From a phage, in sequence record PX930852.1: a stretch of 64,000 nt of DNA; one strand, 5' to 3'. Below are positions 3,549 to 11,725 of this stretch, piece by piece. The translations under genes and the position numbers were made by a program. Under the pieces are notes generated by a model. It saw nothing but the letters and a program-made list of their open reading frames with translations, searched no databases and was not told the DNA's origin. Position 1 is the stretch's first letter, and each line of letters begins with the position of its first letter.

Positions 3549-4244
3549 TCAATGTTTAACTAACATGGTTTTAATGTGTGGAAGGATTCTGTTCACCTTC
3601 TGCACATTCTTCTCTGTGTCTTCTATAAAACATACTATATTAAAGTAAGGCAGGATGCAAGACTGAATCATCCTCACTTTCAAACTTTCTGCACTTATAG
3701 AGTTAGTCCCAAAACCACGCATAAAAAGCATGTAATCATGCTCTATGTAATGCCTTAAAAACATCTCAGTAGGTATTCTCTGAGATTCACCTCTCGCTGT
3801 CAAGAGTCCAATGGCGGCATGATTAGCAATTGCATCAATAATATTGAAAACATACGTTGGTTTTGCTCTTACAGAGTCAAGCAAATTAGTGTACTGTGAA
3901 AATGACCCATCAATCAATTCCGTTGAGCAATCTTCGTGATTAAAATTTGTAAGAACACCATCAATGTCTGCTAAGATAAGGTTACCTTTTTCTACAAGGT
4001 CTTTATTGACTATGACTAAGCTATCACGACTTACGCCTATAGTTTGTCCAGTCTCTTTATCTACAACATTCACAATTGGCTCTGATGTGTGGAACTCTTC
4101 AAGTGAACATACAACTTCTCTTGCAGTGTCTTCAAAATCCCTACACTGTTCTGGAGTCCATACACAGGAATCAAGACCTAACTCATGAGGATGTAAGTCA
4201 TAAGCATGACACAGTACTTCATCAGACTTTCTTAATTTTTTCAT
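3549..4244 (-). CDS. HAD-superfamily phosphatase-like protein (possible nucleotidase)
   Basis: DIDGVLTNF (HAD motif I, DxDG) and GLLTAR (motif II-like). Confidence 0.4.
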   Translation of the reverse strand: MKKLRKSDEVLCHAYDLHPHELGLDSCVWTPEQCRDFEDTAREVVCSLEEFHTSEPIVNVVDKETGQTIGVSRDSLVIVNKDLVEKGNLILADIDGVLTNFNHEDCSTELIDGSFSQYTNLLDSVRAKPTYVFNIIDAIANHAAIGLLTARGESQRIPTEMFLRHYIEHDYMLFMRGFGTNSISAESLKVRMIQSCILPYFNIVCFIEDTEKNVQKVNRILPHIKTMLVKH

Positions 4245-4770
4245 GATTTACCTTAGAAATGTTTGTTGCAAATTCACATTGAGCAATTACTTTCATGTTG
4301 TTATAGACATCTTGAGAATACTTCTTAGCTTTAGGGATTCTGTACGAATACCCAGCATTATATGATGCTAAAACTTTTTGTAAAGTCTTCTTTGACTTTG
4401 GCTGACCATGTACCTTTGTCCAAAACTCAAGCTCTTTGTGAGTTTCCTTCGCAGCATAATCAAAGTCTCTTAAGAGTTTCTTTTTAGCTACATTAGGGCT
4501 AATTTTGTTACGCTTTACAACAGTCTTCAAGTGATTCTGGAAAATACCATAATCATGTGTCTTTTTATTCTCTACCTTCAGACCTAACTCTGACTCTTGT
4601 AAGGCTATAGCAGCTAGAGTGATACCCCAACCTTTACCCATGTTATTCTCACCATACTGGTAAGCTTTTAACATGTTTACTTTTTGGCTAATTGATAGCT
4701 CTGGGCAGTCGACTGCATAAGATAAGTGTGCTGTAAACATTAAGCACAAACCTAGAATCAATTTCTTCAT
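4222..4770 (-). CDS. Secreted lytic transglycosylase (SLT domain), probable endolysin or cell-wall hydrolase
   Basis: N-terminal signal peptide; AIALQESELG (catalytic Glu-Ser), YGIFQ and LASYNAG motifs typical of SLT family. Confidence 0.6.
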   Translation of the reverse strand: MKKLILGLCLMFTAHLSYAVDCPELSISQKVNMLKAYQYGENNMGKGWGITLAAIALQESELGLKVENKKTHDYGIFQNHLKTVVKRNKISPNVAKKKLLRDFDYAAKETHKELEFWTKVHGQPKSKKTLQKVLASYNAGYSYRIPKAKKYSQDVYNNMKVIAQCEFATNISKVNHEKIKKV

Positions 4771-4831: not shown

Positions 4832-4858
4832 AAAAAAGGCCGCCGGAGCAGCCTTTTA
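4832..4858 (-). terminator. Candidate rho-independent terminator
   Basis: GC-rich hairpin AAAGGCCGCC..GCAGCCTTT flanked by A/T runs, between convergently ending minus-strand genes. Confidence 0.4.
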
Positions 4859-4870
4859 AGAAATTACTTA

Positions 4871-5980
4871 TTAGATTTCACGTTTACGTTGAGAGATGAG
4901 TTCACCAGCAGTGCCAACGATGACATGCAAAGCTTCAGTCTTACCGTCCCATGCTTCCAGCACTTTACGTTGATTATCAACGATTGCTGCAACTTCATAA
5001 CGAGAGGAACGCATCTTCATATCGTTGTAATCAGTTGGAACAGATACAACATCTCGTGGATGTACGCGAACCTTCAGGATTGTATCACCTGAGAAGCAAC
5101 GAACATAATCCCAAGCACCAACATGAAGACCTTGAGAGCAAGTTACGTTACGGTTATTATCAACCATCCAACGTGGCATTTCTACAATGTTACCCAAATC
5201 ATTAGGCACTTTGTAGGTGTGAGAGTCAACCAGCTTGCCTTCACGAGTAGAGACTTTCTTCCAACCAATGATGTAGCCTTCTTCATCAATTTCAACATCA
5301 AGGTGAGATACAAATCCCCAAAGTTGTTCTACAGAATCTTTAGATGGGTTTTCCATCAGTTTTTCGAAGAACATCACAAGGCGTTCAAAGCCTTTGTCTC
5401 CAGTCTTCATCATGTGAAGAATACGGTCAACCAGAGTAGAACGCATCTCAACAGCACCGTAGAATAGCTTGTCGCCTTTGATTGTGATAGCACCCTGAGT
5501 GAAGTTTTCGATAGACTTACGAATGTTCATCAGTTCAAATGCTTTCTTGAACTCACCTTTCACAACATGAACTACAATCTCTTGATAGTTCGGATGAGTA
5601 GACTCAACAATTTCAGATTCTGAACCATAAGTCATAATTACAGAATCACCAGTAATCATGTACTCAATCTTGTCATCTTTCTGCATAGCTTCGTGCAGTT
5701 TATTTACTGGAGCTTTCTGTACAGCGTCTTTAACTACCTTTTCAACTGGTTTTCCAGCTTGCTTCTTAAAGGTCTTAGCAACTTGTTTCAAAGTCTTCGT
5801 AGCTGGTGTAGAAGTTGCCTTCTTATTCCCTTTTAAGGTTGCTTCATGACGCTCTACAGCACGACCGACTGAACGGGTTGAAGTGTTAAATTTCTGTGCA
5901 ATAGCTGTTTTGGTCAGCTTACCTTCTTTAACCAGTTTGTAAATTTCTGCGTCAATCTGTGCTTTAGTTTTAGTAGTCAT
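4871..5980 (-). CDS. rIIB-like protein (tentative), N-terminal HTH-like region
   Basis: Lies immediately downstream of the rIIA-like gene in the same orientation; size in the rIIB range; no diagnostic motif recognised. Confidence 0.35.
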   Translation of the reverse strand: MTTKTKAQIDAEIYKLVKEGKLTKTAIAQKFNTSTRSVGRAVERHEATLKGNKKATSTPATKTLKQVAKTFKKQAGKPVEKVVKDAVQKAPVNKLHEAMQKDDKIEYMITGDSVIMTYGSESEIVESTHPNYQEIVVHVVKGEFKKAFELMNIRKSIENFTQGAITIKGDKLFYGAVEMRSTLVDRILHMMKTGDKGFERLVMFFEKLMENPSKDSVEQLWGFVSHLDVEIDEEGYIIGWKKVSTREGKLVDSHTYKVPNDLGNIVEMPRWMVDNNRNVTCSQGLHVGAWDYVRCFSGDTILKVRVHPRDVVSVPTDYNDMKMRSSRYEVAAIVDNQRKVLEAWDGKTEALHVIVGTAGELISQRKREI

Positions 5981-6025
5981 CTTATTACTCTCTCTTGTTA
6001 GTTAATAAATCATTTTGTGAGGATA

Positions 6026-6055
6026 TTCTAAGGGGCTTTGAAGCCCCTTGTCAAA
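6026..6055 (-). promoter_or_regulatory. Candidate sigma70-type promoter with a hairpin in the spacer (TTGACA-N18-TAGAAT on minus strand)
   Basis: Minus strand reads TTGACAaggggcttcaaagccccTTAGAAT upstream of the 4871..5980 gene; the hairpin may instead be a terminator for rIIA. Confidence 0.3.
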
Positions 6056-6059
6056 CACT

Positions 6060-8426
6060 TTAATCGTAAACTGTAGTTCCTTCTGGAACACACTTCACAT
6101 CAAAACCTAAGAACTTACTCACTTCGATGGGTGACACTTTATTCCAATCTAAATGGGAAAGCAAGAAGTTTTCTTGTTTTCTTTTTGAAAGGTAGTTTGT
6201 CACCTTAATAACCATACGGTCACCAGCTTTCTTAATTTTCTTGTAAAGCTTTGTATCGTTGTCAAGACAATCTTTCAAAGTTTTCAACACACTAATAGTG
6301 TAAGTGTATGCAAATGGTGCAGCAACATACTGGATTTTACCAAACATTGCCTCTACAGCCTCTTCATTACCTTCTAGGAAGATAGTTTTGTTTGTATCCC
6401 GTGAATAGCAATAGCCACGAGAAATCTTCCTGTTATTGAACGTAAAGTTTCTGGCAATAATCCAACTGCTTGTAAGGTCAAGGACACCATTCATATAGAT
6501 ACGTGTCATATACCTGTTATGATTAATCCAATGAACATCAGTTAAGCTATCGTTCAAGAGTTTCTCATCTACTTCAATCCAGTCTTCTGGTATCTTTTTC
6601 CAATTTGCTTTTCGGAAAACATAGACTGTCTTCCCTGTAACATTAGCAACTGACTTGGCTACATCTTCTGGAGATGAGCAAAAACATTCGCCATCAACTG
6701 TGTCACCAACTGCCTTAATGTAAAGCTGAGGCTCTTCAATTGTATCAAAGTCTTCTGAAACCTCTTTATAGGAAGCTACACCTTCTGCTGGAACAGCTTT
6801 CCAGAGTTTTACAACACCTCTTACAGCTTCTTTACGCTGGTAATGGTGCTCCTTATCAGACATTTTCACAATCTTTAACAAGCTTTTATCAAGTTTGTGT
6901 AGATTGATTAAATCATCTAACTCTTTTTCAGTCGAGAATACAAACACAATGCCATTATATCTGTGAAACAGACTGGACTCACTGGCGTAGTCTCGACATG
7001 CACCACGCAGAATCTGATTGCGGCCTACAGTCTTCTCAGTACCGTTTTTATTGCGACGGTCATTAATAACAAACAAAAACTGTTCAATTTGACTTTTACG
7101 CATTGCACCAAAGATATTGAACATACTTGCCTCTTGAGTGTAGGATAGTGCTGTTGCACGAATCTTACTCTCTAAAGAGTTAAACTTGACATAAGCAACT
7201 GGGTCATAAAGATAATCTACTTTAGGGATATTGTTCCCGTTCCTATCAACCTTAATATTACCTTTACCGTCACGTTCGTAAATGACTGAGCCGTCTTCTG
7301 CGTAGATAATTCCACGACGAATGTTTAGCAATTCTTCTTCCAGAGAATCAAGCTTAACGCCACCCCACTCTAGCTTTGGACACACAGCATTAAACATCTC
7401 TCGTGAGTTCAAACGTAACTCAGCATAAGCCTGTGCAGCATCCATGAGTGTAGGTTGGCTATTAACTTTCTTGATAACATCCTTTGTAATGGCTTCAGTT
7501 ATCTTTTTAGTAGCCTCAATGATAACATTTTTTGTCGTGTCATTCATCTGCAATGCTTCACGAGAAGCTGCAATAGCAACTGAACCAATAGGCATGTAGA
7601 TGTTTACAAGGTCTACGCTCCTACGGAAAAACTCTGGCAAGACTTTGAAGAAATCATCACCAAGTAACGCTTCCATGTTCACTGGATAGGCAATGTTACC
7701 CATCACCACATTAAACTCTGTCCTGTTATCACTAGAACGCCAGCTGTGCTTATGAATCATGGCATCATAAACACCTTCTTCACGGGCAATTACGTTCATA
7801 TCTGCTAATACATCGTCGTACTCAATATTACTTTCTGGTTTTACAGTGAAGTATGAGTACACATTCCCAGCTTCTTCAAAGAACTTTGAGATACGGTGGT
7901 CAGCAACTGCCACACGTACAGCTAAACCATTAGGTTCTTTTGTTTGGTTAGTTGTCAGCTTAGTTACTTGAGGGATACCATTCTCAAGATAAACAGAGTA
8001 CTTATTAACAACACCGTCAACATAACTAGATACTGTGAATGACTGAGCAATTGCAAATGGTGACTTTGAGCCGATACCCATTGCACCAATGTAGTCATTA
8101 GAGTCATTCTTCGTAGAAGCTCCATAGTTTAGGTACAAACTCATAACTTTATCATGAGTCAATCCAGTTCCAAAATCACGAACTTCGAAGTAAGGCTCAA
8201 AACGAGTAGGTAAATGCACATGGAATGGGATGTTCTCTTTTCCAGCTTCTTTCTGAGCATCTACTGCGTTACATGACAGTTCACGAATCACTGCCCTTTC
8301 TTTAAAGGTATATACACCAGAACTCAAAAGGCTGAACATCTCAGGTGTCATTGTAATCTGTGCTTGAGACGTCTCTAAAGAAGTTGAACTCTTAATCACT
8401 TCTGCGTGGTCATTTACCATGCGCAT
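6060..8426 (-). CDS. rIIA-like protein with N-terminal GHKL (histidine-kinase-like) ATPase fold
   Basis: RELSCNAVDAQKE (N-box), RDFGTGL (G1) and GAMGIGSKSPFA (G2) motifs; ~790 aa; followed by rIIB-sized gene. Confidence 0.55.
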   Translation of the reverse strand: MRMVNDHAEVIKSSTSLETSQAQITMTPEMFSLLSSGVYTFKERAVIRELSCNAVDAQKEAGKENIPFHVHLPTRFEPYFEVRDFGTGLTHDKVMSLYLNYGASTKNDSNDYIGAMGIGSKSPFAIAQSFTVSSYVDGVVNKYSVYLENGIPQVTKLTTNQTKEPNGLAVRVAVADHRISKFFEEAGNVYSYFTVKPESNIEYDDVLADMNVIAREEGVYDAMIHKHSWRSSDNRTEFNVVMGNIAYPVNMEALLGDDFFKVLPEFFRRSVDLVNIYMPIGSVAIAASREALQMNDTTKNVIIEATKKITEAITKDVIKKVNSQPTLMDAAQAYAELRLNSREMFNAVCPKLEWGGVKLDSLEEELLNIRRGIIYAEDGSVIYERDGKGNIKVDRNGNNIPKVDYLYDPVAYVKFNSLESKIRATALSYTQEASMFNIFGAMRKSQIEQFLFVINDRRNKNGTEKTVGRNQILRGACRDYASESSLFHRYNGIVFVFSTEKELDDLINLHKLDKSLLKIVKMSDKEHHYQRKEAVRGVVKLWKAVPAEGVASYKEVSEDFDTIEEPQLYIKAVGDTVDGECFCSSPEDVAKSVANVTGKTVYVFRKANWKKIPEDWIEVDEKLLNDSLTDVHWINHNRYMTRIYMNGVLDLTSSWIIARNFTFNNRKISRGYCYSRDTNKTIFLEGNEEAVEAMFGKIQYVAAPFAYTYTISVLKTLKDCLDNDTKLYKKIKKAGDRMVIKVTNYLSKRKQENFLLSHLDWNKVSPIEVSKFLGFDVKCVPEGTTVYD

Positions 8427-8612
8427 AATACTTTCCTCTCAGTTTACTGTTAAATTACTTATTAAACATTTTACCAGAACCACCACACATAGGGCAACAT
8501 CCTGCCCTTATGTACCCCTCTCCATTACAGTAGTCACATTTTTTGTGCTCTGCAAAGTACTTACAAAGGAGGTAAACAAATACTGCTACACTACCAAGTG
8601 ACAGTAAAATTT

Positions 8613-8948
8613 CTATCCAATATGCTTGCATGACTCACCTCTCATATTCTTGTAAAGGATAAAGCTTCTGTCATGGACGATACTTGTAGACACTGCAAAG
8701 TTACTTTCAAGCATCTGTTTGTTTGGATTGTAGAAGCTTTCTTTAAACTCGTCAAGTGCAAATTGGTGATTATCTGGAAGACCTTTTACACAGACCTTTA
8801 TTGTAATTGCTGCTGCGACCTTGCCAGTCAGTTCTTCTTTAGCTGCTACTAAAATTTTGTTAAGAAACTTATGGCCATCTTCAGGCTTCTTGATGTTCTC
8901 CCAACGTTCTTCTAAGACAATGTTGATGTTCATCTCTTTGATTTTCAT
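8613..8948 (-). CDS. Hypothetical protein
   Basis: 111-aa ORF. Confidence 0.4.
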   Translation of the reverse strand: MKIKEMNINIVLEERWENIKKPEDGHKFLNKILVAAKEELTGKVAAAITIKVCVKGLPDNHQFALDEFKESFYNPNKQMLESNFAVSTSIVHDRSFILYKNMRGESCKHIG

Positions 8949-8963: not shown

Positions 8964-8986
8964 TTAAAAAGGCTCCCGTAGGAGCC
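8964..8986 (-). terminator. Rho-independent terminator (GGCTCC-CGTA-GGAGCC plus T-run)
   Basis: Perfect stem-loop followed by T-run on minus strand, downstream of the NAMPT-family gene. Confidence 0.55.
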
Positions 8987-9001
8987 TCTTATCATATACT
9001 T

Positions 9002-10783
9002 TTAAAGCTGCTTGTCAATATTATTTCGAATATCACCAAGAGTTGTGTAACCAAACTGCTCAGAGTCACTAAAGACTAAACGTAAAGCACAAGCTGGGTG
9101 GTCAAGTACATCTGCAAAACTCTGGAATCCATAGCCATCTACAGCTTTCAGCTTACCACCATCCCACATAGGTGCTACACCACCAAAGGCAGATTTCTTA
9201 ACACCACTATCTGTTTTAGGGTCTTTTGCAAGCATAATCTCTTTACCACCAATGCTTGCAAGAGTTGCTTTGACAGCAAATGCAAAGGTGTCACGAGTCA
9301 TGTACTGGTAAGTGTAAGAACCTACGCCAAACACTACGTTAGAGCTTGCAAAACCCATTTCATACAGACGCTTCAGGATTTCGTTTGCACGTTCCAGCGT
9401 GATAGAGTCACCATAGATAAGTCCGATATGCTCATCCAGTACCTTAAACCCTTTAGAGTTAATAGTTCCCCCAAAGATGTTGTACAGTGTCTTAATAGCT
9501 CCATCAATCTCAGCTACAGGACGTGTTACAACGTTTGCAGAACCAACCATATAAGCGTTTTTCAACAGCACTGTATCAGCAACTTCAAAGTCTTCTCTGT
9601 CAACAACCATTTCGTAGCCTTCTGACAGTAGCCATCCAGCAATACCATAATTGATGTTTTCAAGCTTCATGTTCAGAACAGCATTCAACATTGTGTCACT
9701 GGCTTCAAGCTTGCTTAAGTGTTCGTAATAAGCCTTTTTAGCACACTCTAAGTGGATTGCTTTATAACCTGTGACAATATGTACAGGGTCTCCAGAGTCA
9801 GGACGAATTACCAGTTTACCGTCACGTCCCATAATCTCTTTGCGAAGTGCTGGTAAGATTTCTGACACAGTTCTCCAGAAGTTATAAGTGTCTGAAACAA
9901 CACTTGCAATACCAGTTGGGTAAGTTTCTGTTAAGAAACGACGGAAGGTTTGTAACTCACCTTTAAAGCGTCTTTCTTCTTCAATCAACTCATTACCACC
10001 TTCCCAAGCGATGTTTGCACACATTACAGAGTGTTCAGTGGCTGGTACAGAACTACCAATATCAGAGATTGGGTAAGACTGTCCATAGATTCGTTTAGCC
10101 GTATACACAGCAGGGAAGCTATCAGTTCCTTTAAAGCTGGTTAAGTGGCCTACAGCGTTAAATGCGTCATCAGTAAAGCCGGACATACCACGCATAGCAA
10201 AGTCATGGCACTGATAAGGCAAATGCAAGTCGTTGTCACAAGTAAGGTCAGCCCACTTCTTACAGATACGTTTGTAGTGCAATGCAATAGTTGCAATGGT
10301 ACAAGCCTTCCAAATCTCAGCAGAGAAAGCATCTTCCAGATAACCTGCTACCCAATGGAAACCTGAAACAGTGTTCTGGAAAACAATCATCGGAACACGC
10401 ATAGGGACAACCGTGCCTTCTTCTACAGCGTATACTTCAACTGGTAGATAACCTAAGTCGTGAAGTGCTTCCCAATGCTCTCGACCGATAGCATCTTTGC
10501 CCAGAACACCATTCATGACTTCTAAGATTTCGTCAATTGCTTCTTTTTTGTCACGTTCAAAGAACGTAGCATTCCAGTGGTCTATCAAGTAATCTTTAAC
10601 AAAACGTTGAATACCAAAAGCGACTACACCATCAATTGCTAATGGGCTGTTAAACCATTTGTCGCTACGTGGTGTCAGGTTGAACATCAAATATTCTGTT
10701 GCACTAGGGTACTGGTAAACATGACCAGATTTGTAAGCATCTGCGTTTAAACCTGCTGGTACTGCATAAAGTGATTTAGTCAT
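9002..10783 (-). CDS. Nicotinamide phosphoribosyltransferase family protein (NAMPT/NadV-like; possibly nicotinamide ADP-ribose transferase, Namat, of a NARP1 pathway)
   Basis: DAYKSGHVYQYP, HDFAMRGMSGF..FKGTDS, SVPATEHSVM, SVVSDTYNFW, VIRPDSGDPV all match conserved NAMPT blocks. Confidence 0.85.
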   Translation of the reverse strand: MTKSLYAVPAGLNADAYKSGHVYQYPSATEYLMFNLTPRSDKWFNSPLAIDGVVAFGIQRFVKDYLIDHWNATFFERDKKEAIDEILEVMNGVLGKDAIGREHWEALHDLGYLPVEVYAVEEGTVVPMRVPMIVFQNTVSGFHWVAGYLEDAFSAEIWKACTIATIALHYKRICKKWADLTCDNDLHLPYQCHDFAMRGMSGFTDDAFNAVGHLTSFKGTDSFPAVYTAKRIYGQSYPISDIGSSVPATEHSVMCANIAWEGGNELIEEERRFKGELQTFRRFLTETYPTGIASVVSDTYNFWRTVSEILPALRKEIMGRDGKLVIRPDSGDPVHIVTGYKAIHLECAKKAYYEHLSKLEASDTMLNAVLNMKLENINYGIAGWLLSEGYEMVVDREDFEVADTVLLKNAYMVGSANVVTRPVAEIDGAIKTLYNIFGGTINSKGFKVLDEHIGLIYGDSITLERANEILKRLYEMGFASSNVVFGVGSYTYQYMTRDTFAFAVKATLASIGGKEIMLAKDPKTDSGVKKSAFGGVAPMWDGGKLKAVDGYGFQSFADVLDHPACALRLVFSDSEQFGYTTLGDIRNNIDKQL

Positions 10784-10828: not shown

Positions 10829-11725
10829 TCAATCAAGGTTTGCTACAGTAACTTGACCATAATGTGTTAAGCCACGGTCTTTAGCTTCGCCTAAAGAGTT
10901 TGTAGTGTAAATATGGTCGATACCGTTGTCAAGAAGGTTTTCAACACCTTTAGAGAAGATACCATGTGTTACATAAAGCTCAACACGTTTTGCACCTGCT
11001 TCACGTAGGTGTTTAGCTGCCTCTACGAAGGTTCGACCACCATCACAGATATCATCAAGAATCATGACGGTTTTATCGGTCAAATCAACATCGTCAAGGA
11101 TTCGCATACCAGTGATTTCTCCAGTCTTAAGATTTCGCACCTTAGACATTGTGATATATGGTTTATCCACCTCTTTAGCAGTCTCTGCAATCTTCTTAGA
11201 AGCACCTGCATCTGGGGCTACTAAGTAATCAATTAGAGGGTCATTTGCATAGTGGACTGCAATCTCCTTTTGAGGAATACTTTGGAAGCAGTTAAACAGG
11301 TTATCTGGTACATAACTGTGAGGGTCAACTGCACAGACTGCACCAAATCCCATTGCATTTACCTGTTTAGCAAAAACCTTTAAAGCTGCTGCGTCGCCTT
11401 TAAACATGTGACGGTCGTATCGTGCATTTGGCAAGTAGTAAAAAATGACAGTCTTCAGGGCATAATCATGAGGAACTAAATCGTCAATTGCTTCTTTAGC
11501 CAGTGCCACAGCAAACAGTGTGTCTTTGTTATAACCCTTTACAATCATAACCACATTGTTAATAGATGATGCTGCATAAGCAGTAAAATCAACAAGCTCT
11601 TGTGAAAAGTGGCCACCAATCTCACCAGAAGGGAATTGGATGATGTTAAACTCTTCTTCATGAGTTCCTTTAGTCGGTGAATGAATTGTGACACGGATAG
11701 ATGTTTTCATAGTTTTCTCTCTCAA
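10829..11725 (-). CDS. Ribose-phosphate pyrophosphokinase family protein (Prs-like; possibly ADP-ribose pyrophosphokinase, Adps, of a NARP1 pathway)
   Basis: LVAPDAGASKKIAE and MILDDICDGGRTF match the Prs PRPP-binding/PRTase loops; directly upstream of the NAMPT-family gene. Confidence 0.8.
   Translation of the reverse strand: MREKTMKTSIRVTIHSPTKGTHEEEFNIIQFPSGEIGGHFSQELVDFTAYAASSINNVVMIVKGYNKDTLFAVALAKEAIDDLVPHDYALKTVIFYYLPNARYDRHMFKGDAAALKVFAKQVNAMGFGAVCAVDPHSYVPDNLFNCFQSIPQKEIAVHYANDPLIDYLVAPDAGASKKIAETAKEVDKPYITMSKVRNLKTGEITGMRILDDVDLTDKTVMILDDICDGGRTFVEAAKHLREAGAKRVELYVTHGIFSKGVENLLDNGIDHIYTTNSLGEAKDRGLTHYGQVTVANLD

Follow-up and report, generated by a model that had tools for sequence, protein, structure and literature searches.

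The 64,000-nucleotide (nt) stretch of phage DNA in sequence record PX930852.1, referred to here as the window, carries on its minus strand two adjacent genes at positions 4,871 to 8,426 that, as judged by profile searches, pairwise comparison with phage T4 and gene order, are bona fide homologs of rIIA and rIIB. Very probably, the locus is the rIIA-rIIB module of Felixounavirus, an accessory module that becomes conditionally essential on certain hosts carrying abortive infection (Abi) or other defence systems, namely QatABCD and lambda RexAB. The two genes are as follows.

6060..8426, minus strand: rIIA gene, an open reading frame (ORF) with a phrog_612 match; product of 788 amino acids (aa), 89.6 kDa, pI 6.3.
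4871..5980, minus strand: rIIB gene, an ORF with a phrog_609 match; product of 369 aa, 41.8 kDa, pI 9.2.

An earlier note on this DNA had described two ORFs of 788 and 369 aa and had read them as an rIIA-like and rIIB-like pair with an anti-defence role. Both ORFs were present exactly where they had been placed (6060-8426 and 4871-5980), separated by a spacer of 79 nt, and the profile search bore out the family assignment: the 788-aa protein matched phrog_612 'RIIA' with an E-value of 1.1e-188 (aa 1-770 on profile positions 1-716 of 725), and the 369-aa protein matched phrog_609 'RIIB' with an E-value of 2.4e-89. The Pfam-A copy used for both proteins held no rII models and returned sub-threshold matches only (HATPase_c, E 0.12; HTH_Tnp_ISL3, E 1.3e-3). 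Among homologs in a large protein collection, PF26926 was found on rIIB and PF13589, a GHKL domain, on many rIIA proteins. Homologs of rIIA were detected in 2,926 of the 50,697 phage records, and the family of the rIIB C-terminal domain comprised 7,614 cluster representatives at 50% identity (E <= 1e-3).

The order rIIA then rIIB on one strand is the same in T4. The BLASTP comparison showed 32% identity between rIIA and T4 rIIA (NP_049616) over aa 24-317 (E 4e-37), and 37% identity between rIIB and T4 rIIB (NP_049889) over aa 11-339 (E 6e-61). When the rIIA family profile was aligned with T4 rIIA by hhalign, aa 1-358 only were covered (335 columns, probability 100%, E 9.6e-57). The likeness to T4 is thus confined to the N-terminal part of rIIA, where about 345 aa are homologous and the GHKL motifs are identical, and extends over almost the full length of rIIB, including its helix-turn-helix (HTH) domain and the TCSxGLHV motif. 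Beyond about aa 358, the remaining ~430 residues of rIIA could not be aligned significantly with the C-terminus of T4 rIIA by either BLASTP or hhalign. A T4-like C-terminus is not a defining trait of rIIA, since the family has been described as variable there (PMC7824862). Two further differences from T4 were observed: the Lys-rich linker of rIIB is about 57 aa longer in the window, and the 79-nt spacer, which contains a promoter-like site, contrasts with the near-abutting rII genes of T4. A homology of more than 80% to T4 RIIA/B, given in the PhageMaP preprint for g84/g85 of phage Bas63, could not be reproduced, as the near-identical window proteins reach 32%, in the N-terminal third alone, and 37%.

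The window belongs to Felixounavirus (Felix O1-like myoviruses of Escherichia and Salmonella), with LF110P1 as its best nucleotide match at 98.0%. Many Felixounavirus genomes share 96-98% identity with the 4.5 kb surrounding the rII locus, and the genes are already labelled rIIA/rIIB in the annotated relatives KhF1, UAB_Phi87, FSL SP-107, heid, Bas63/JohannRWettstein and SUSP1; an annotation note in KhF1 points to rIIB from Felix O1 itself. The pair is therefore an already known module, annotated in dozens of Felixounavirus genomes. As in T4, rIIA lies directly upstream of rIIB on the same strand in KhF1, Bas63 and SUSP1.

The function of the module has been studied in close relatives. Bas63 (JohannRWettstein, MZ501086) belongs to the same genus and shares the synteny of the window at bas63_0084/0085; its rIIA is likewise 788 aa long and 97% identical, and its rIIB is 82% identical, differing mainly in the linker (72%) and in an alternative tail (35% identity over aa 336-369). 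Deletion of either g84 or g85 of Bas63 lowers plating 10^4-10^5-fold on a host with QatABCD and is rescued by complementation, and neither gene is needed on standard hosts (10.1101/2024.10.10.617714). When RIIA or RIIB was knocked down by CRISPRi-ART in T4, MM02, EdH4, SUSP1 and N4, efficiency of plating dropped only with lambda RexAB expressed, and rII modules from five genera, less than 40% identical, all counter this system (PMC11879866). The genes rIIa and rIIb in phiSUSP1, which represents another genus of the same subfamily (Ounavirinae), have the same synteny and encode proteins 63% and 79.5% identical to those of the window, with only ~52-54% identity in the C-terminal half of rIIA. 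Transposon sequencing confirmed the T4 rII result and implicated the Bas37 orthologs on clinical isolates. The module can also be sensed: T6 RIIB alone activates a CARD-gasdermin system of Lysobacter, and RIIB over-expression is toxic (10.1101/2023.05.28.542683).

The anti-defence role is accordingly supported through orthologs, by Bas63 on QatABCD and by SUSP1 on RexAB. The targets named in the earlier note were RexAB-type exclusion and membrane-depolarising Abi systems; the first is indeed countered by SUSP1 and other phages, but the emphasis on membrane depolarisation proved too narrow, current descriptions making QatABCD a QueC-family/TatD-nuclease system, for which no step at the membrane is reported. 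RexAB pairs the DNA-binding RexA with the membrane protein RexB (PMC11077077), and QatABCD consists of a QatB-QatC protein-modification complex and the TatD nuclease QatD (PMC13279940, PMC13434339). The Qat structural papers of 2026 that were consulted neither report a membrane step nor mention rII, and they lend no support to membrane depolarisation by QatB as suggested in the PhageMaP preprint.

The Bergerat-fold ATPase motifs (N-box, G1 and G2) reported earlier in the 788-aa protein were found, with their key residues invariant in 70-71 diverse homologs. Motif I (N-box) reads R48-E49-L-S-C-N53-A-V-D56, motif II (G1) D84-F-G86-T-G88 and motif III (G2) G114-A-M-G117-I-G119-S-K121, and motif IV lies around G167; the invariant positions are E49, N53, D56, D84, G86, G114, G117, G119, K121 and G167, and one of the 70-71-member alignments includes T4 rIIA. 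An AlphaFold2 (AF2) model built from 70 sequences had a mean predicted local distance difference test (pLDDT) value of 88.9; the T4 rows were left out of the AF2 input alignments of both rIIA and rIIB. Three regions can be distinguished in rIIA.

7902..8357, minus strand: GHKL (Bergerat-fold) ATP-binding domain of the Hsp90-like type, about aa 24-175, assigned from motifs, profiles and AF2/Foldseek.
7353..7901, minus strand: conserved middle region, about aa 176-358, in which Y247, G281, R289 and E290 (A-S-R-E motif) are invariant.
6063..7352, minus strand: lineage-specific C-terminal region, about aa 359-788, folded confidently (pLDDT mostly above 85).

Even between very divergent phages the residues that bind nucleotide do not vary, and ATP binding and hydrolysis would therefore matter for rIIA; the catalytic Glu, the Mg-binding Asn and the Gly-rich lids, all invariant, suggest that the protein both binds and hydrolyses ATP. 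In Hsp90, MutL and GyrB, a second domain contributes an Arg or Lys for sensing of the gamma-phosphate, and by analogy R289 in the middle region is a candidate gamma-phosphate sensor. Conservation across Ounavirinae falls from 81-94% identity in the GHKL domain to 45-60% in the C-terminal region. No transmembrane helix was predicted in rIIA, the maximum of the 19-residue Kyte-Doolittle window being 1.29.

In profile and structural searches alike, the best matches of rIIA were to Hsp90-family proteins. NCBIfam models for the HSP90 family (E 2.1e-11) and the sacsin ATP-binding domain (E 4.7e-7) matched rIIA, both far below their curated full-length cut-offs (43 bits against 455 bits for HSP90). 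Single-sequence searches of PDB sequences gave no match for rIIA or rIIB, whereas the rIIA family profile retrieved TRAP1 first (E 1e-5), the alignment taking in the signature LYSxK..IRELxxNxxDA of the Hsp90 N-terminus as well as the G1 box. Foldseek comparison of the rIIA model with the PDB returned 585 matches at E <= 1e-3, headed by TRAP1, HtpG, GRP94 and Hsp90 with E-values down to 4e-18. Thus, rIIA shares with the Hsp90 family (TRAP1, HtpG, GRP94) the Bergerat fold, the N-terminal signature and the GxxGxG-x-K-S lid. The likeness is secure for the N-terminal domain(s) only, no Hsp90 C-terminal dimerisation domain was recognised, and rIIA should not be filed as an Hsp90. A literature search for a link between rIIA and Hsp90 yielded nothing relevant.

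The AF2 model (pLDDT 85.4) of rIIB, a soluble and basic protein, showed a three-helix N-terminal bundle and a linker, followed by structured protein to the end. Three segments are of interest here.

5828..5965, minus strand: N-terminal HTH domain, aa 6-51, three helices in the AF2 model with pLDDT of about 95.
5711..5821, minus strand: Lys-rich disordered linker, aa 54-90, pLDDT below 50, hypervariable within the genus.
4976..5398, minus strand: conserved, phage-restricted C-terminal domain, aa 195-335, with the motif T-C-S-Q-G-L-H-V; PF26926 is found on homologs.

Foldseek placed the N-terminal bundle with HTH domains of DeoR, KorA and NarL/RcsB/DosR (probability 0.9-0.99, root-mean-square deviation (rmsd) 1.2-2.8 A), with E-values that were not significant because the domain is short. 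Pfam HTH_23/HTH_28 matched 18 of the 74 rIIB family members (best E 9e-12), and T4 rIIB aligns through the HTH region of the window protein. The only residues invariant in the family (74-75 homologs) are all C-terminal, namely F204, G235, V273, C281, G284, H286 and P308; the invariance of C281, G284 and H286 holds in an alignment that includes T4. PDB sequence, family-profile and Foldseek searches found no solved-structure relative of this C-terminal domain, and its 32 structural matches in BFVD were all rIIB proteins. Across 10 atypical architectures of this domain, Pfam gave a single hit, an uninformative ribosomal L12 C-terminal domain. One distant metagenomic protein, P0360 (514 aa), joins the C-terminal domain of rIIB to that of ribosomal L7/L12 (Pfam E 4e-12), an isolated oddity. 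No transmembrane segment was predicted in rIIB (hydropathy maximum 0.69), and on these predictions neither rII protein is integral in the membrane.

The two proteins vary differently within Felixounavirus. A single tight cluster at 98% was formed by rIIA, the next cluster standing at 68%, and a graded series of 78-97% was formed by rIIB. The rIIB linker (aa 53-92; 5705-5822) was 45-88% identical among Felixounavirus clusters, and the last 34 residues (aa 336-369; 4871-4972) fell into two tail types with 35-38% or 91-97% identity to the window, as against 81-100% for the HTH and C-terminal domains. The pattern in linker and tail suggests mosaicism or diversifying selection on rIIB, and would fit an arms race bearing on a protein sensed by some defence systems.

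Gene order around the locus is colinear with Bas63 and SUSP1 on one strand: ribose-phosphate pyrophosphokinase, NadV, two small ORFs, a 58-aa membrane protein, rIIA, rIIB, a 182-aa ORF and polynucleotide kinase (pnk). From this context, placement in an "early region" is plausible. The 58-aa ORF (8455-8631, minus strand) lies 28 nt upstream of rIIA and encodes an N-terminal transmembrane helix (hydropathy 2.11) followed by two CxxCxGxG motifs (CDYCNGEG and CPMCGGSG), the DnaJ-type zinc-finger signature, with a Pfam DnaJ_CXXCXGXG match below cut-off (E 0.003). The protein corresponds to phrog_3931, and its position is kept in Bas63 (96.5% identity) and SUSP1 (47%). A counterpart relationship to T4 rIIA.1 was ruled out, the sequences showing no similarity. 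The presence of a membrane-anchored DnaJ-like finger adjoining an Hsp90-like ATPase is suggestive.

Further upstream lie genes for NadV (nicotinamide phosphoribosyltransferase, 593 aa; 9002-10783, minus strand) and ribose-phosphate pyrophosphokinase (298 aa; 10829-11725, minus strand). Their Bas63 counterparts, g80 and g79, respectively, are reported to be co-essential counters of Sir2-HerA defence (PhageMaP, 10.1101/2024.10.10.617714), and the two genes look like a second anti-defence module, for NAD+ reconstitution, beside rII. Directly downstream of rIIB, the 182-aa ORF (4222-4770, minus strand; phrog_600) begins with a signal-peptide-like stretch and resembles lytic transglycosylases weakly, its SLT match (E 0.0012) being below cut-off; it is annotated as 'putative lysin' in phage heid. 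Two putative regulatory elements flank rIIB.

4834..4857, minus strand: intrinsic-terminator-like hairpin and T-run, 14 nt past the rIIB stop codon.
6025..6054, minus strand: sigma-70 promoter-like site, TTGACA-18-TAGAAT (11/12), in the rIIA-rIIB spacer (5981-6059); a consensus match only.

The equivalent of the downstream hairpin is annotated in KhF1 as a Rho-independent terminator. A perfect GC hairpin, GGGGCTTCAAAGCCCC, is embedded within the promoter-like site of the spacer. A similar pairing was observed after nadV (8967-9018, minus strand), where TTGACA-N16-TATGAT is directly followed by a GC-rich hairpin and T-run, and the combination of promoter and hairpin could be a recurring cassette in the Felix O1-like phage group. 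Another promoter-like site, at 8453-8425, was judged to be due to chance, its -10 hexamer overlapping the rIIA ATG. Over the whole window, GC skew was negative from 1 to 30 kb, positive from 30 to 42 kb and negative again, with a sign change near 30 kb, consistent with a plus-strand gene block inside an otherwise minus-strand window.

For the mechanism, several explanations were considered, of which the most likely, itself put forward only tentatively, is that of a single ATP-driven complex. We infer that rIIA and rIIB would act together, the rIIA dimer serving as a clamp gated by nucleotide, comparable to Hsp90, MutL or MORC, and rIIB providing target binding via its HTH and C-terminal domain. 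Such a complex would act upstream of the defence sensors and remodel or mask a nucleoprotein or protein trigger generated by infection; it would neither plug a membrane channel nor inhibit effectors singly. The two proteins appear to be one unit on account of their co-essentiality, their invariant adjacency and a natural fusion. In the T4-like phage RB43, RIIA-RIIB (Q56C47, 1,049 aa) is one fused gene with the rIIB fold at the C-terminus (BFVD Foldseek E 3e-24), where the window has two separate genes. It is because of this type of fusion that the N-terminal part of the 1,055-position profile phrog_609 is matched by rIIA and its C-terminal part by rIIB, and the fusion is Rosetta-stone evidence that rIIA and rIIB work together. 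The trigger-masking step is one that we infer purely; it would explain how one module counters two mechanistically unrelated systems and how rIIB has become the trigger for a third, the CARD-gasdermin system.

A number of observations weigh against this interpretation. Rather than from experiments on the window phage, the evidence for function comes from orthologs, and rIIB is only 82% identical to the Bas63 protein and carries the other C-terminal tail type. In the full-length Foldseek comparison of rIIA with Hsp90, the global template-modelling (TM) score is 0.3-0.4 and the rmsd is high, with only the N-terminal part superposing securely. The HTH matches of the window rIIB itself are weak, the sole Pfam match being HTH_Tnp_ISL3 (E 1.3e-3). 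Neither ATP hydrolysis nor DNA binding nor complex formation was shown for any rII protein in the literature searched, and no biochemical mechanism was reported there. In classical T4 work, moreover, rII proteins turned up in membrane fractions, in line with the view that they protect the membrane.

According to that view, rIIA and rIIB are peripheral on the inner membrane and prevent or compensate the ion leak or depolarisation caused by Abi effectors such as RexB, an explanation that we consider possible but doubtful. RexAB excludes phage through membrane depolarisation and is countered by rII, databases use the label 'membrane integrity protector', the same logic was proposed for QatABCD by the PhageMaP authors (10.1101/2024.10.10.617714), and the conserved transmembrane protein encoded upstream of rIIA could provide an anchor. 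The proteins themselves are difficult to reconcile with this role, as transmembrane or strongly hydrophobic segments are absent from both, rIIA has the soluble ATPase fold of Hsp90 and rIIB starts with an HTH; the later QatABCD structures comprise soluble QatBC and a nuclease without a membrane step, and the small gene upstream of rIIA does not figure among the Bas63 genes reported to counter Qat. The HTH, conserved across the rIIB family, is instead the starting point for regarding rIIB as a transcription factor that recognises specific sequences and has an ATP-dependent partner in rIIA, the anti-defence phenotypes then being indirect effects of altered phage or host expression. Iyer et al. 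2021 class rIIB as a specific transcription factor (PMC7824862), and rII is dispensable on defence-free hosts, as is often the case with regulators of accessory programmes. This explanation is unlikely, since conservation within the HTH is confined to a few positions and not one residue in aa 8-48 of rIIB is invariant across the family, which speaks against a conserved operator, the invariant residues sit in the C-terminal domain, and RIIB triggers the gasdermin system alone, without phage DNA.

Hypervariability in the C-terminal half of rIIA and in the linker and tail of rIIB, with two tail types within a single genus, is what would be expected of arms-race interfaces, and rIIA and rIIB might accordingly be direct one-to-one inhibitors that bind and block components of each system, such as RexA and RexB or QatB and QatC, with their variable parts conferring specificity. 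Such specificity is at odds with the finding that modules less than 40% identical, from five genera, counter the same lambda RexAB and that the unrelated QatABCD is countered by the same module, and the invariant ATPase residues imply more than stoichiometric binding; direct inhibition thus seems quite unlikely. True lysis inhibition, in which rII would control holin timing after superinfection, has behind it the labels in PHROG and GenBank, together with the rapid-lysis plaques for which T4 r mutants are historically known, and nothing else. It is hardly credible, because the label is historical, the published experiments considered here show a defence-dependent plating defect rather than a change in lysis timing, and the GHKL ATPase and HTH content shares nothing with holin or antiholin proteins.

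The single ATP-driven complex can also be given a more specific form, in which rIIA is the Hsp90-like clamp and rIIB the DNA or target adaptor, the two masking a common nucleoprotein trigger so that RexA and QatABCD are never activated, and the 58-aa protein is a tether or co-chaperone. In all these particulars the proposal is improbable, although a membrane tether of this kind would reconcile the old membrane-fraction data with the soluble folds.

For the window itself these results are of minor importance, as its genes are already annotated and have been functionally tested in a sister phage with 97% and 82% identical proteins; the remaining interest lies in the mechanism of the rII family as a whole. 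Starting points for mutants that probe this mechanism are, in rIIA, the invariant ATPase residues and the Hsp90-like signature, in rIIB, the HTH, the invariant Cys281/His286 and the hypervariable linker and tail, and, for the two together, the natural fusion. Present in thousands of phage genomes, rII modules decide the growth of therapeutic and model phages on RexAB- or Qat-type hosts. If true, an ATP-gated clamp would supply the 70-year-old rII problem with a molecular mechanism, a trait of the entire rII family rather than of the window.

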